DNA from: an uncultured Candidatus Peribacteria bacterium
GTDB lineage: Bacteria > Patescibacteriota > Gracilibacteria > BD1-5 > UBA2023
Reading direction: 5' to 3'
DNA: 64,000 bases
Assembly (NCBI GenBank): GCA_964482035.1
Contig: CAYZVC010000004.1
Coordinates: 19,572 to 83,571, forward strand
In this document: positions 7,945 to 44,848 of the stretch, piece by piece
How positions within the stretch are numbered: the first letter of the stretch is position 1
Layout of the letters: each line of letters opens with the position of its first letter
The notes under the pieces: generated by a model
Database searches by the model: none
The model's input: the letters and a program-made list of their open reading frames with translations, nothing else
What the model was told of the DNA's origin: nothing
Program-made: the position numbers and the translations under genes

Positions 7945-8350
7945 ATGAAACGTCCGAAAAGCATCCGCCGACTCTCGGGATTCACGCTCGCCGAACTCAT
8001 CGTCGTGATAACGATCCTTGCCATACTCGCCACCATCGGATTCCTCGCCCTTTCCGGGTACTCGGAAGACGCGAAGGAAGCTTCGGTAAAGACCAACGTC
8101 CGATCCGTATATACCGCGATCAATTCGGAAAGCGCGATTACGGGGAATTCCCCTCGGTACTACGTCGTGCACGATACCGGAGCGGCGCTCTCGGGAGCCT
8201 TCATCACCATAGACGGAAATCCGGTGGCGCTTACCGGAGGCGACTGGAACGTTTCGGGAACGAATTATTCCGCCGGAAAACCCGACTTCGTAAAATTGAA
8301 AATGAATCCCGCCAAATTCCGAATATCCGGAGCGGGGACGGAAGGGTTTC
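7945..8350 (+). repeat. pilin N-terminal module, paralogous copy 1 (copy 2 at 28869-29285)
   Basis: By-eye DNA and protein alignment with 28869-29285: GFTLAELIVV.TILAILATIGFLALSGY, KTNVRSVYTAI, SPRYYVVHD, LTGGDWN..GTNYSAG.PD.VKLK.NP.KFRI are shared. Confidence 0.7.
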
Positions 8351-9255
8351 CATTCCTCTCCGTCGCGCATGCCGCGAATTACCAGGAAATGATCGCCGGA
8401 GCGGCCGACGTAATCCGCGGCGGAACTTCAGGAAGGCCCCGTCCATTGGGATTCCTTCAGGTGGCGGGCGTTTCTCCGATAACGAAAATCGCGAGCGTCG
8501 CCGGAAACCTTCCGTCCGATCAGGCGGGAAATCCCATGGGGCTCATCAAAGATCCCAGCGATTCCGCGACGGCGACCGGATTCGTCGTCGACGGGAAAAC
8601 CATCGGCAACGTTACGAAAACCGTTTTTTCGAAAAGCTGTCTGGAAATCAAGAACGCCGGAGCGTGAAGCGCCGACGGAACGTACTCCATCGATCCCGAC
8701 GGCGAAGGATGAAACGCACCCATCCAAGCATATTGCGACATGACTACCGACGGCGGAGGATGGACGCTCACTTTCTACGCACCCTCGATGCCTTCGGACG
8801 GAAGCGCGGACCTTACGGCGAACCAAGTCGTCATCAAGGGATTGCCATTAAAGACCTATACGTCCGATTCGGCAACGTACCCCGTGCTTACCAACGGTAC
8901 GGTAAATTCCTATTCAGAAGTGCTCTTCAAATGAGGCAATTCAAGCTGGGTGGGCCAAAAAGGCGCATGGAGCCGATTCGCGACCTTTCCTTCGGGAACC
9001 ACTGCCATGAGCGTAACGTTCGACGGGGTGCTCAATGCCGACGGAAGTACGGCCCTTTACCATCATTCGAGGGGATGGACGACCGGAACCGTCAACCCCG
9101 CGACCGCGACGTTTTGAATCTGGGACGATGCCGGACAGAGCAACATCTGCTGAGGAAACGGTGTGCCGGGATGAAAGAACTGCCCGTATTTCGTACACAC
9201 CACGTACTCGTACCACTACGAAGTCGCTTCCCAAAGATGGCTCTTCGTTCGATAG
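7945..9255 (+). CDS. type IV pilin-like protein with a C-terminal fibrinogen-related (FReD-like) domain
   Basis: Prepilin signal RRLSG/FTLAELIVVITILAILA with Glu at +5; frame runs through 6 TGAs to TAG 9253-9255; SCLEIKNAGAGSADGTYSIDPDG...QAYCDMTTDGGGWTL matches the fibrinogen C-domain signature. Confidence 0.8.
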
Positions 9256-9265
9256 AACATACTTT

Positions 9266-9293
9266 TTGACAAAATCGTTTCGGTACGTATTTT
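9266..9293 (+). promoter_or_regulatory. sigma-70-like promoter (TTGACA - 16 nt - TATTTT)
   Basis: TTGACA at 9266-9271 and TATTTT at 9288-9293, upstream of an AAGGAG SD at 9317-9322. Confidence 0.35.
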
Positions 9294-9328
9294 ACACCAA
9301 TCAAAACCAATATAGAAAGGAGTCCGCG

Positions 9329-9709
9329 ATGCCGGCACCAAGATTTCCGCAAGAGCACCTCGCTTACGCAGACCTGGCGCTCCTCAGCTGTTGGGGCGTC
9401 AAAAGCCTGGAAAACTACACCCTCTCGGTCCAACTGCTCGAAATAGCCCGGACCTACGTCGAATGCCACTATCCGTGGATTGCCGAAGCGCTCGAAGCCG
9501 AAGACCAAAAAGTCTTCGCCAAAGCCTTCGACAGGCACGTGGAAACCCTCTCCAAGCACGGTTGGGGCGAATACGCGGCATCCGCCCTATACCACGCCCT
9601 CCGCGACTACGGTCCGATGCAAAAAGCCTTGCTGAAGCGTTTCCCCGACGCGAGCAAACATGACGCGAAATCCGTCGTGACGGCGTTCGTCAAGAACTGC
9701 CGCCCCTGA
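9329..9709 (+). CDS. hypothetical protein (126 aa) whose natural end is a TGA
   Basis: Strong SD AAGGAG 6 nt before ATG 9329; ORF closes at TGA 9707-9709, immediately followed by an intrinsic terminator; read as Gly it would run to TAG 9989-9991 across the terminator and antisense to yidD. Confidence 0.5.
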   Translation: MPAPRFPQEHLAYADLALLSCWGVKSLENYTLSVQLLEIARTYVECHYPWIAEALEAEDQKVFAKAFDRHVETLSKHGWGEYAASALYHALRDYGPMQKALLKRFPDASKHDAKSVVTAFVKNCRP

Positions 9710-9721
9710 CTGGCCAAAACG

Positions 9722-9748
9722 AAAGCCCCGCTTACCGCGGGGCTTTTC
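9722..9748 (+). terminator. intrinsic terminator
   Basis: Stem AGCCCCGC / GCGGGGCT with loop TTACC, then a T-run. Confidence 0.7.
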
Positions 9749-9771
9749 ATTGGGCCGGATTTCCGAAGGCC

Positions 9772-10071
9772 TTATTTGTCGGGTCCTTTCTCCACCGGAT
9801 CGTATCCGCCCTTCGTCCAAGGATTGCACCGGAGCACCCGCCACGAGGTCTTAAGAAGCCCGACGATAAAACCCCTCTTCTCGAAGGCTTCGACGCCGTA
9901 TTCGCTACAAGAAGGGATATGTTTGCAGTACGGCGGACGGCCCATCGCCTTCGCCCAGAACGAATGGTCGGGCGAAAGGATTTTCTGGTAGGCACGAATC
10001 AAAAAAACCGCCCCACGTGCGGGAAGTTTCACGATATCCGAGAATATGGAGCCGAATTTCGAACCGGTCAT
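9772..10071 (-). CDS. yidD: membrane protein insertion efficiency factor YidD
   Basis: YQKILSP....CKHIPSCSEYGVEAFEKRG....LLKTSWRVLRCNPW motif; TAA stop; start ATG 10071 is preferred over 10104, which overlaps the rplT terminator. Confidence 0.85.
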   Translation of the reverse strand: MTGSKFGSIFSDIVKLPARGAVFLIRAYQKILSPDHSFWAKAMGRPPYCKHIPSCSEYGVEAFEKRGFIVGLLKTSWRVLRCNPWTKGGYDPVEKGPDK

Positions 10072-10103
10072 AGAAAAACCCCCGCTTTCGCGGGGGTTGG
10101 TCA

Positions 10104-10448
10104 TTACTTTACGGAATCTACGACCTTCGCGAAAATCTGCGGGTGGCTGATTGCGAGGTTCGAGAGGTTCTTGCGGTCGATTTCCATCTTCGCCTTGTAA
10201 GCGAGGTTGATGAAAGCGCTGTAGGTGAGGCCGAGCGGGCGGAGAGCCGAATTCAAGCGGACGATCCAGAGAGCGCGGAAATCGCGCTTCTTGGTGCGGC
10301 GGTGGATGTAGGCGTTGGTTCCTGCCTTGGCGAGGGCGTTCTTTACACGGGAAAAGACGTTTCCGTTCATCAAGCGGTAGCCCTTCGCGCGTGCGATGAG
10401 CTTCTTGTGGCGCTTATGGGTGGCGAGACCACGTTTTACGCGAGTCAT
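10104..10448 (-). CDS. rplT: 50S ribosomal protein L20
   Basis: MTRVKRGLATHKRHKKLIARAKGYR..., intact ORF, TAA stop. Confidence 0.95.
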   Translation of the reverse strand: MTRVKRGLATHKRHKKLIARAKGYRLMNGNVFSRVKNALAKAGTNAYIHRRTKKRDFRALWIVRLNSALRPLGLTYSAFINLAYKAKMEIDRKNLSNLAISHPQIFAKVVDSVK

Positions 10449-18943: not shown

Positions 18944-20371
18944 ATGTCTAATATTTCCGCGATCGTAAAATCCATTCAAGACACTATGCGCAAGGATGCC
19001 GGGGTCGACGGCGACGCCCAGCGCATCGGCCAAGTATCTTGGATGCTCTTTTTGAAAATTCTCGACGATCAAGATCGTAACCTCGAAGTCATTCTCGACG
19101 ACTACGTTTCCCCCGTGCCCGAGGATTGCCGTTGGGGCAATTGGGCAGCCAACAAAGAAGGGATGACGGGTGACGAGCTCGTGGAATTCGTTAACGAAAC
19201 CCTCTTCAAGAAACTCCGCAGCCTCCCTTATGACGCGAATCGTCCGATGACCGGGATTATCCGCGGCGTTTTTGAGGACTCGTTCAATTATATGAAATCG
19301 GGAACGCTCCTTAGGCAGGTAATCAATAAGATCGGCGAAATCGACTTCAGCAAGAAAACCGAACTCCACGTCTTCAACGACATCTACGAAAAAATCCTGA
19401 GCGATCTCCAATCCGCGGGGAACGCCGGGGAATACTACACCCCCCGTTCGGTTACTCAGTTTTTAGTAGACATGGCGGATCCGAAACTCGGCGAGACCGT
19501 TCTTGACCCTTCCTGCGGCACGGGCGGCTTTCTTACTTGCGCCATCGAGCATATCCGCAAGAACGGCGTACATGAACGCAAGGACGAAGAAACTCTTCAA
19601 AAATCCATCCGCGGAATAGAACTCAAACAGCTTCCGCACCTTCTCGCAACGACCAATCTCATTCTCCACGGTATCGAATGCCCCTCGGGACTCCGTCACG
19701 ACGACACACTTTCGCGTCCGCTCAAAGACTACGGCCCCGAAGATGCGGTAGACGTAATCGTCACGAATCCGCCCTTTGGCGGACAGGTAAAACCCGGCAT
19801 CATTCACAACTTTCCAAGTCAGTTCCAGACTGCGGAAACGTCGTTTTTATTCATGGTGCTCATCATCAATCTGCTTAAATCCGGAGGACGTGCCGGTGTG
19901 GTATTGCCGGATGGCTTCCTCTTCGGCGAAGGCGTGGCCACCCGCATCAAGGAAAAACTCCTTTCCGACTGCAACCTCCATACCGTCGTCCGCTTGCCGA
20001 ACGGGGTATTCAACCCGTATACCGGCATCACGACCAACCTCCTCTTCTTCACGAAAGGCGAACCGACGAAGGAAGTCTGGTATTTCGACCACCCGCTTCC
20101 GGCGGGTATCAAGAATTACAGCCGATCGAACCCGCTCCGTATCGAGGAATTCGATTTGGAAAAATCCTGGTGGAACGACCGGAAGGAAACCGGAAACGCC
20201 TGGAAGGTCGGCATCGACGAAATCAAGGCGAGAGATTACAATCTCGACATTAAGAACCCGAATCGGAAGGAAGAGAAAGAAATCTTGGATACGAAAGAAC
20301 TCATCGACGCTATCGAGGCGAATTTCAAGGAAGCGGCGGCAATTTTGGAGAAAATTAAGACGAGCGTGTAA
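18944..20371 (+). CDS. hsdM: type I R-M N6-adenine DNA methyltransferase subunit M
   Basis: Intact 475-aa ORF; GEYYTPR, DPSCGTGGFL, NPPFGG motifs; no TGA. Confidence 0.95.
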   Translation: MSNISAIVKSIQDTMRKDAGVDGDAQRIGQVSWMLFLKILDDQDRNLEVILDDYVSPVPEDCRWGNWAANKEGMTGDELVEFVNETLFKKLRSLPYDANRPMTGIIRGVFEDSFNYMKSGTLLRQVINKIGEIDFSKKTELHVFNDIYEKILSDLQSAGNAGEYYTPRSVTQFLVDMADPKLGETVLDPSCGTGGFLTCAIEHIRKNGVHERKDEETLQKSIRGIELKQLPHLLATTNLILHGIECPSGLRHDDTLSRPLKDYGPEDAVDVIVTNPPFGGQVKPGIIHNFPSQFQTAETSFLFMVLIINLLKSGGRAGVVLPDGFLFGEGVATRIKEKLLSDCNLHTVVRLPNGVFNPYTGITTNLLFFTKGEPTKEVWYFDHPLPAGIKNYSRSNPLRIEEFDLEKSWWNDRKETGNAWKVGIDEIKARDYNLDIKNPNRKEEKEILDTKELIDAIEANFKEAAAILEKIKTSV

Positions 20372-43714: not shown

Positions 43715-43740
43715 GGAAAAACCCCCGTTCGAACGGGGGT
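43715..43740 (-). terminator. intrinsic terminator
   Basis: CCCCCGTTC/GAACGGGGG palindrome followed (minus strand) by TTTTT. Confidence 0.7.
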
Positions 43741-43750
43741 CGATTTCACT

Positions 43751-44848
43751 TTAGGAAATTCCGTAATCCTTGCGTAATTTCTCAATAACCGATTTCGCCA
43801 TGAGGTACTTGTGCGAAGTTTTCCAACTGCCGTCGGTCTTGCCTCAGAACGTTTCCGGTTCGTTTTCGAGCATTTCGAGCATTTTCGACGAGGGTACGAG
43901 TTCGACCGCGTCGATTTCGCGACGGTCGAAACCGGTAACCTCGCCGCGGAATTCGAACGCGTACACGTCGACGCGTTCGTTGTTGTCCTCGACGATTTCG
44001 CGTCCTTCTTTGTTCTTTTTCGTGACGGAAGCGTACGGGGCGTTGAATTCTACGAGTTTCAAAGCCGGGACCTCGGGAAGGAGGGAATCGAAATCGATGA
44101 CGCCCGAAGCCGAAACCGTGGGAATGCGTTCAGTCCGTTCGAGACGGATGCCGGTCTCCTCTTCGATTTCACGGAGCACCGAGGTGAACGAAACGTATTT
44201 CCTGAGCCCCGGATTCACCGAGCCGTCGGCCGGGTACGCATTGGAACCGTTTCCTGGCGCGGCGGGGATTTCGGAAACCGCGTACCCCACGTGCCCGCCT
44301 CAAAGCCTTTGCCAATGCGCTTTGCCGGTGGCCGATTTCTCAGCGGAACGCTTGCCCATGTAGATGCCGATGTCGCCGATGTCGCGGTACGCGTCGGGAT
44401 TTACGGCCCAATAGTGGGTGGAAATATGGCCTATCCCTTCTTCGTGGGCGACTTTTCGGTCGACGAGGCGAGAAGTGAGTCGGCCCTTGGAATCGATTTC
44501 CGGGAGGTACTCGACCCTTTTTTCCGCGAGGGCATTCAAAACCCCGTCCAAAACCGCGGTTCGGACCGATTGGAGGTCGGGAGATTTACGAAACGCCTCG
44601 AAAAGGGCGCGATCGCTGAAAGAAAGCGTTTTTACGGGCTTCCCGTCTTGCGAGAACACGACGTTCGAAGTTCCGTCCACATAACCGCCGAGCACGGTAT
44701 AGAAAGGGAAATTTTTGACCGTTCCGTCCTCGAAGCGCGCTTGGACGCCATGGAAATTCGGACCTCATCAAAATCCCTCGCCGATGCCGATGCGGCAGTC
44801 GGTGGATTCGGTGACGAGAATATGGGAATCGGTCGCGTTATGGCTCAT
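43751..44848 (-). CDS. NUDIX-family hydrolase with an N-terminal extension
   Basis: Pieces 43844-44290 and 44300-44695, plus upstream, share one frame via TGAs (including a tandem TGA-TGA in GEGF-GG-GPN); Nudix box ...LREIEEETGI. Confidence 0.7.

Follow-up and report, generated by a model that had tools for sequence, protein, structure and literature searches.

In the genome of an uncultured Candidatus Peribacteria bacterium, which is predicted to read TGA as glycine, a small gene was found that ends on TGA, a short distance before a strong terminator. The gene lies in the window, that is the whole stretch of 64,000 nucleotides (nt) of DNA analysed here (assembly GCA_964482035.1, contig CAYZVC010000004.1, forward strand positions 19,572 to 83,571; C4:19572-83571 of the genome called G000 below, of which G004 is a congener). 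Comparison with relatives shows that this terminal TGA is, to judge from its substitutions, maintained by selection as a mark of the gene's end: elsewhere its place is taken by TAA or TAG, never by a glycine codon, and its distance from the terminator is that of a stop codon. About 41 to 43 genes of the genome, around 20% of those followed by a terminator, end on TGA. The reading that we favour, tentatively and with slightly less than even confidence, is that the terminal TGA has a stop-like role served by a release route independent of release factor 2 (RF2). The features of the locus, in positions of the window, are the following.

9266-9293, plus strand: sigma-70-type promoter, with a -35 element TTGACA (9266-9271), a 16-nt spacer and a -10 element TATTTT (9288-9293).
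9300-9328, plus strand: short, A/C-rich 5' leader carrying the Shine-Dalgarno (SD) site; its fold of -5.4 kcal/mol (z = -0.28) marks it as unstructured.
9317-9322, plus strand: SD site AAGGAG, 6 nt upstream of the ATG at 9329 and kept in orthologues.
9329-9706, plus strand: coding region of 126 sense codons without internal TGA, for an all-alpha, soluble protein whose family is small and specific to the lineage.
9707-9709, plus strand: terminal TGA at the protein-end position; elsewhere in the genome the codon is glycine.
9710-9720, plus strand: non-conserved spacer of 11 nt between the TGA and the terminator.
9721-9751, both strands: bidirectional intrinsic terminator with an 11-bp GC-rich stem, a 5-nt loop and T-rich runs on each strand, common to the gene and the convergent yidD.
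9710-9991, plus strand: in-frame continuation under genetic code 25, 94 codons to the TAG at 9989-9991, non-conserved and antisense to yidD.
9772-10104, minus strand: yidD (Pfam YidD, E = 6.5e-24).

The open reading frame (ORF) at 9329-9706 is a genuine gene. Among close relatives the ratio of nonsynonymous to synonymous substitution rates (dN/dS) is 0.21-0.24 at dS values of 0.6-0.85, and the substitutions at codon positions 1, 2 and 3 number 288, 259 and 677, changes at the third position being dominant. An AlphaFold2 model computed from an alignment of 16 sequences is all-helical, with seven helices and a pLDDT of 89.3. The 126-residue protein was assigned to no family by a Pfam search and had no significant neighbour in a fold search of the PDB (best E = 2), while an Rfam search of the locus gave nothing above the gathering score.

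The signals around the gene form a complete cassette. The promoter matches the consensus at 10 of 12 positions, and sites of such quality number 4 in a 6-kb region where 1.5 are expected; TTGACA and a TAnnnT hexamer at equal spacing are kept in all orthologous loci. The AAGGAG of the leader is complementary to the 3' end of 16S rRNA (...AUCUCCUU). The assembly has one copy of the 16S gene (C10:220-1694, 3' end …GGAUGGACUAUCUCCUU); its anti-SD core is CUCCU inside UCUCCUU, the usual form being CACCUCCU, and it fits the SD sites, of AAGGAG(A) type, that the genes ending on TGA have. At the other end a hairpin at 9721-9747, GAAAGCCCCGC/TTACC/GCGGGGCTTTT, starts 11 nt past the TGA and is followed by the T-rich run TTTTCATT. 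Its predicted fold has -32.2 kcal/mol on the plus strand (z = -5.7, none of 200 shuffles being as stable) and -29.9 kcal/mol on the minus strand (z = -4.2). With a GC-rich stem, a T-run and a location near a gene end, the element at 9721-9751 has the predicted features of an intrinsic terminator; our simple terminator scan skipped the hairpin, as A/T closing pairs consume the T-run. Promoter, SD site, TGA and hairpin are found together in nine of nine close homologous loci examined, a recurrence that places the elements of the cassette beyond chance. A look by eye for pairing between the 5' SD site and the 3' end found no complementary stretch.

Most of what a preliminary description of this locus had read from the letters can be retained. 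The order TTGACA-16-TATTTT, AAGGAG, an ORF of 126 codons without internal TGA and the TGA at 9707-9709 is as it was given, as is the next in-frame stop of the code-25 frame, the TAG at 9989-9991, past the terminator and antisense to yidD. The absence of SD sites from neighbouring genes was also rightly noted, with none at ten neighbouring starts; over the whole genome, 5% of first starts have a strong SD motif before them, versus 4% at a control position within genes. The terminator is present as described, although its hairpin lies at 9721-9747 and 11 nt after the TGA instead of at 9722-9748 and 12 nt after it.

The premise of that description, that TGA encodes glycine in this cell, holds as well, and under a standard model the ribosome would read on past this codon. 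The host is predicted to use genetic code 25, on the joint evidence of a tRNA-Gly(UCA), the lack of RF2 and the occurrence of TGA at conserved glycine positions. The assembly of G000 (1.63 Mb, 55% GC, 98.85% complete) carries the tRNA-Gly(UCA) at C3:9845-9923 as a normal cloverleaf adjoining a tRNA-Gly(GCC), and the same pair is present in G004. Exactly one gene with an RF-1 domain (PF00472) was found in G000, its loop RIPETE.KGRVHTS…GGQ being of the RF1 type. No RF2 was found in G000 or in 40 relatives of the order, and no ArfB in G000; in the survey of the 40 relatives each genome had a single RF1 with the PxT loop bar two weak extra matches, and one genome (G015, 88% complete) had no match. 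A single RF1 without RF2 agrees with the literature on the code of BD1-5 bacteria (PMC6851277). A self-trained codon model gave 1211 genes in G000, in which TGA makes up 0.56% of the in-frame codons and about 7% of the glycine codons, or some 2,500 internal TGAs. In the comparison with about 959 kb of G004 sequence, 651 of the 883 alignable internal TGAs (74%) face glycine, versus 77% for GGN codons, and opposite them stands GGN in 59% of cases and TGA in only 14%. Judged by these exchanges, internal TGA behaves as an ordinary glycine codon that is freely exchanged with the others. Transfer-messenger RNA (tmRNA), SmpB and ClpP are present in G000.

The distribution of TGA among genes is over-dispersed: 508 of the 1211 genes have no in-frame TGA, where a Poisson expectation gives 286, and among the genes of at least 300 codons the same is true of 173 of 588 (expectation 44), while others exceed 15 TGA per 1000 codons. 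The absence of internal TGA was also considered as a mark of foreignness and set aside, being unremarkable on crude ORF boundaries, on which those 508 genes are free of TGA, and significant only with SD-defined starts.

Homologues of the gene are present in six of six genomes of the genus and in none of 55 other relatives. Within the genus the identity of orthologues falls as low as 31-37%, and synteny is kept, the gene being placed between PAP2/pilin and yidD-rplT-rpmI-infC. There are 12 metagenomic clusters with homologues, all of 126-127 residues, and when 1.84 billion representative proteins were searched with a profile, only 12 matched, all small (121-128 residues), with no homologue or donor lineage outside this one. 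In two metagenomic relatives, the loci L143 (580-951) and L144 (804-1587), the family is present as tandem paralogues. From these tandem copies one may guess that the protein is a small regulatory or protein-binding factor of the immunity type.

These data bear on the origin that had been proposed for the gene, namely that it was taken up recently from a bacterium or phage with the standard code and SD sites, whose signals would not yet have been remodelled. The cassette does have every signal of the standard code in a host whose genes mostly have no SD site, and the genes of G000 that end on TGA are lineage-specific as a class. Nevertheless, recent import is not supported, because synteny is kept across the whole genus, divergence is deep, the composition is native (GC and GC at third codon positions of 0.575 and 0.708 in the TGA-ended class, versus 0.571 and 0.714 in the rest of the genome) and no donor was found among the 1.84 billion proteins; on these comparisons the gene appears to be vertically inherited and lineage-specific. 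Moreover, old members of the class still have no internal TGA, so that these features would be maintained and not merely not yet lost. We regard a recent acquisition as very improbable.

The terminal codon was followed across the family. In the six orthologues of the genus the ORF stops on TGA at the same place, with a GC-rich hairpin 12-30 nt further on, and three further relatives likewise have a TGA end with a hairpin after it. In more distant members of the family the codon differs: in L144 the ORF ends at the homologous residue on TAA (…NCRP-TAA), as does the tandem paralogue in the same locus, and in L142 it ends on TAG (…QNC-TAG); a hairpin follows in L144 and L142. Over 13 loci the terminal codon is thus TGA in ten, TAA in two, TAG in one and a glycine codon in none. 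A hairpin comes after it in every homologous locus examined bar L143, in which the next gene is directly a paralogue: there the TGA that ends the upstream copy and the ATG of the following one are 33 nt apart and have no terminator between them. Six close relatives have spacers of 12, 12, 15, 13, 13 and 13 nt from TGA to stem (counted to a stem start one base inside that of 9721), and since these lengths vary the reading frame is not kept past the TGA. The in-frame continuations of the orthologues run from about 31 to more than 250 codons of unrelated sequence, and that of 9710-9991, non-conserved and antisense to yidD, does not appear to be a coding extension. The preliminary description had named orthologues that continue in frame with conserved sequence as the finding that would speak against an end at this position; they were looked for, and the homologues were seen to end there on TGA, TAA or TAG.

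The arrangement is not confined to this family. In a genome-wide screen with simple custom scripts for gene models, starts and terminators, 714 terminator-like hairpins were checked for an upstream coding frame. Among those with a clear frame, TAA or TAG was found before the stem in 207 and within the stem in 17; 55 others, nearly all of them strong hairpins, had neither of these codons and an in-frame TGA 2-57 nt upstream, and 49, mostly weak, had neither stop nor TGA. Eight of the 55 TGA-only calls, mostly at weak hairpins of 6-7 bp, were rejected as internal TGAs, the alignment with G004 running more than 40 residues past them, and after removal of the false calls the class has 43 members. 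For hairpins of at least 9 bp the counts are 174 with TAA or TAG, 41 with TGA only and 8 with none. The distance from the terminal codon to the stem has a median of 15 nt for TGA and 13 nt for TAA or TAG (p = 0.51).

The substitutions at these ends are unlike those at internal TGAs. In 11 clean orthologous pairs, the G004 counterpart of a terminal TGA in G000 is TGA in seven, TAA or TAG in four and GGN in none; reverse swaps also exist, in which some TAA stops of G000 are TGA followed by a hairpin in G004. The reciprocal analysis from the side of G004 was noisy and added two clean cases, TGA versus TGA and TGA versus TAG. At the divergence of G000 and G004, about 36% of genes have exchanged TAA for TAG or the reverse, from which it follows that stop codons are saturated and that the retention of TGA is specific to the gene. 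Only this one congener was sampled deeply. TGA thus appears with two distinct substitution patterns, that of a sense codon inside genes and that of a stop at their ends, as would be expected of a codon with a dual meaning.

The principal alternative is that these are constitutive non-stop genes. UGA would be read as glycine, and a further 14 codons (G-LAKTKAPLTAGLFI) would be translated until the ribosome reached the mRNA's 3' end, set by the terminator. There tmRNA and SmpB would rescue it, and the product would receive the tag (…APSFALAA) and for the most part be degraded; the loss would be made up for by the strong SD site, or the protein would be gated to conditions of saturated trans-translation, as with arfA and brfA. 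This is what standard biochemistry predicts for a cell with tRNA-Gly(UCA) and no RF2, and the tmRNA, SmpB and ClpP that it needs are there. It also agrees with terminators that are strong and close, the read-through up to the predicted 3' end being 17 codons in the median across the class, with terminal TGAs that do not have the context of release-factor stops, and with backup stops that are not under selection: no enrichment of TAA or TAG was found downstream of the terminal TGAs of the class. On the other hand, any sense codon would do in a non-stop gene, yet GGN, the partner of 59% of internal TGAs at equal divergence, is found in none of the 11 pairs and none of the 13 loci, and strong terminators with no stop-like codon before them number just 8, as against 41 with TGA. 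Nor would the model account for the scarcity of internal TGA among these genes (see below), and proteins under purifying selection (dN/dS of 0.22) would be made only to be degraded. The TGA of L143 is an operon-internal end and lies outside the reach of this explanation. We consider constitutive non-stop translation unlikely, though by no means negligible.

The members of the class share further properties. They are short (median 148 versus 275 codons) and weaker in codon adaptation, and their products are mostly hypothetical, membrane or accessory proteins, with a solute symporter, a spermidine-synthase-like and a chemoreceptor-like protein among them. Matches in G004, G024 and G037 were found for 33%, 2% and 0% of them, versus 66%, 21% and 17% of the genes ending on TAA or TAG. 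A strict SD-led start is present in 27 of the 43 (63%) versus 48 of the 207 genes with TAA or TAG (23%, about chance level; p = 9e-7), and this link was replicated in G004 (9/13 versus 16/53). With SD-defined starts, internal TGA occurs at 1.0 per 1000 codons in the class versus 3.95 per 1000. Neither the SD link nor the depletion of internal TGA comes from gene age, because lineage-specific genes ending on TAA or TAG show neither (29% with SD, 3.9 TGA per 1000 codons).

Of the genes linked to a terminator, the class accounts for about 20% in G004 and for about 10% in G024 (43% GC); it is essentially absent from G037, with 25% GC and TGA as 70% of its glycine codons (0/11), and from G011, which belongs to another genus of the same family and has 52.5% GC. 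In the roughly 555 kb of G011 that were sampled, 18 strong terminators stand behind genes, compared with about 220 in the 1.6 Mb of G000; the reliance on terminators differs sharply between genera.

This distribution bears on the possibility that the terminal TGAs are relics or products of drift, either fossil stops or mutations from TAA to TGA under GC pressure in a symbiont of small population size, nearly neutral as the terminator limits the damage. The accessory, lineage-specific and less codon-adapted nature of most of the class is in line with this, and so is the frequency of such genes, which peaks in the genus with high GC and few glycine TGAs (6-7% of the glycine codons) and is nil in the relative of 25% GC. 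A neutral TGA should decay, however, whereas it is kept in all ten loci of the family that carry it, four of which represent deep lineages of the genus with protein identities of 31-37%, and in 7 of 11 class orthologues. GC pressure was rejected as the sole cause, given that the GC-rich G011 has essentially no such genes, and drift gives no explanation for the links with SD sites and with the depletion of internal TGA. An origin by relic or drift therefore seems improbable to us.

The same links could be expected if the class were written for a state of the cell in which UGA is a stop and SD sites are used, for example when a standard-code phage brings RF2 or removes tRNA-Gly(UCA), or when the genes are expressed inside the standard-code host of this presumed epibiont. 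SD site, lack of internal TGA, TGA stop, consensus promoter and own terminator do occur together specifically and not by way of gene age, and phages compatible with code 11 are predicted to infect such bacteria (PMC10746230). There is, however, no evidence of such a switch or of a transfer of DNA or RNA, and the class includes ordinary cell functions such as those of the three proteins named above. Specialised ribosomes were rejected as a candidate, the assembly having only one 16S gene and no sign of them. Such conditional decoding is, in our estimate, highly improbable.

We return to a stop-like role of the terminal TGA. According to this reading the gene would be driven by its own sigma-70-type promoter and translated from a true SD site. 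With less certainty, the terminal UGA would not be handled by the ribosome like any other glycine codon, and the end of the functional protein would, likewise with less certainty, be at or near Pro126. Release would take place at this UGA, or else in the stretch of 14 codons that separates it from the transcript's 3' end, in a cell without RF2. It might come about by a kinetic competition that tRNA-Gly(UCA) loses at this place, or by a rescue-type release near the end of the mRNA; productive read-through to the TAG ending at 9991 would be disfavoured. The fuller claim, that UGA is read in two ways, as glycine inside some 700 genes and as a true end signal, without RF2, for a class of SD-led genes free of internal TGA, is in our estimate less likely than not; the gene at 9329 would be a clean example of that class.

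A number of observations weigh against the stop-like reading. No factor able to release at UGA is known here, RF2 and ArfB being absent, and a broadened specificity of RF1 was rejected, as its PxT loop is the same (PET/PAT) in the genus and in relatives without TGA-ended genes. The tRNA-Gly(UCA) appears normal, and the reading of the roughly 2,500 internal TGAs demands sufficient efficiency of it; with tmRNA, SmpB and ClpP at hand the textbook outcome of read-through is tagging and degradation. The surroundings of the terminal TGAs also differ from those of ordinary stops: lysine precedes none of 43, versus 24% at TAA or TAG, and T follows at position +4 in 5% versus 35%. They favour C or A at +4 and C at -1, a context that is not avoided at internal TGAs, where +4 C has a frequency of 0.181 versus 0.160 at GGN codons. 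With about 18% of internal glycine TGAs also followed by C, no fewer than GGN, a local tetranucleotide rule is insufficient. Finally, the sample of orthologous terminal TGAs is small, with 11 pairs and 13 family loci. The preliminary description had offered a non-stop transcript or context-dependent termination as alternatives to acquisition; both are still live, the second not in the form of a simple rule of local context.

Some observations on the surroundings of the gene and on the assembly may be added. A second strong terminator hairpin (AACCCCCGCGAAAGCGGGGGTT, followed by T's) is found at 10077-10098 on the minus strand, 3' of rplT and within the annotated N-terminus of yidD, and the Pfam YidD match begins only at residue 32 of the yidD ORF; for these two reasons the real start of yidD is probably a downstream ATG. 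The pilin-like gene at 7945-9255 (plus strand) encodes an N-terminal methylation motif and a fibrinogen-C/collagen-C-like segment and has six in-frame TGAs, one of them within the domain match. ARAGORN made two odd calls, a 69-nt tRNA-Phe with anticodon AAA at 43715-43783 of the window (minus strand) and a 97-nt 'tRNA-???' with a two-base anticodon at C2:344697-344793 of G000, beside a tRNA-Met, and these may be artefacts or unusual tRNAs. Ten small contigs of the assembly (C6-C9, C11 and C15-C19, 1.0-2.3 kb) have 63-73% GC, as compared with 55-57% in the four large ones, and may be contamination of the bin.

Codons of context-dependent meaning are found in the ciliate Condylostoma and the trypanosomatid Blastocrithidia, where they are sense inside genes and mark the end near the 3' end of the mRNA; these systems keep a release factor for the codon and use cues close to the poly(A) tail. 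TGA in the present genome is similar in being sense within genes and an end marker close to the 3' end of the mRNA; it differs in its bacterial setting, in having no known factor for UGA and in that the stop-like use is limited to a class of genes that avoids internal TGA. A second comparison is with arfA of E. coli and brfA of B. subtilis, which are expressed under the control of tmRNA from non-stop mRNAs whose last part is a hairpin or terminator, and encode rescue factors that are small (55-75 residues), basic and act with RF2. As in those genes, the code-25 frame here enters a terminator without a usable stop, in a cell with tmRNA and SmpB. Unlike them, the product is a helical bundle of 126 residues without similarity to ArfA or BrfA and without a Pfam match, and the RF2 partner is absent; moreover about 40 unrelated genes share the arrangement, and it is TGA that is conserved, not any sense codon.

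Code 25, with UGA as glycine and prfB lost, is established for Gracilibacteria/BD1-5 and Absconditabacteria/SR1 (PMC4032931; PMC6851277). The present genome resembles these descriptions in its tRNA-Gly(UCA), in the lack of RF2 (in G000 and the 40 relatives) and in internal TGAs that align with glycine, and departs from them, since UGA is there described as sense only, in keeping TGA at the stop position of about 40 genes. A search of the literature by keyword turned up no earlier account of TGA-ended genes in code-25 bacteria, which does not prove that there is none. The code-11-compatible phage genomes predicted to infect code-25 CPR (candidate phyla radiation) bacteria (Liu et al., mBio 2023, PMC10746230) have TGA stops backed by a nearby TAA or TAG. 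The gene is like them in having no in-frame TGA and a possible TGA end in a host where TGA is glycine, and unlike them in that the next stop is 94 codons away, backups are not enriched, and the gene is chromosomal, syntenic and in a context that is not that of a phage. A phage or mobile gene was accordingly rejected as a candidate, there being no near backup stop and the neighbours being PAP2, the pilin-like gene and yidD-rplT-rpmI-infC in all relatives.

The reassignment of a stop codon is usually described as complete: with RF2 lost and a cognate tRNA gained, UGA becomes sense everywhere. Here a reassigned codon would still be kept by selection at the ends of a defined class of genes. For annotation this means that gene callers using table 25 over-extend the genes of the class, the one at 9329 being called with 220-318 residues, overlapping yidD, instead of 126. 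The intermediate stages of a change of code become testable with a short and concrete list of genes. If the non-stop translation were programmed, several percent of the genes of these symbionts would be under the control of tmRNA. If termination is real, there would be either a bacterial route of release at UGA without RF2 or an mRNA-specific decoding of a single codon, and these bacteria would provide the first bacterial counterpart of the dual-meaning codons of ciliates and trypanosomatids.

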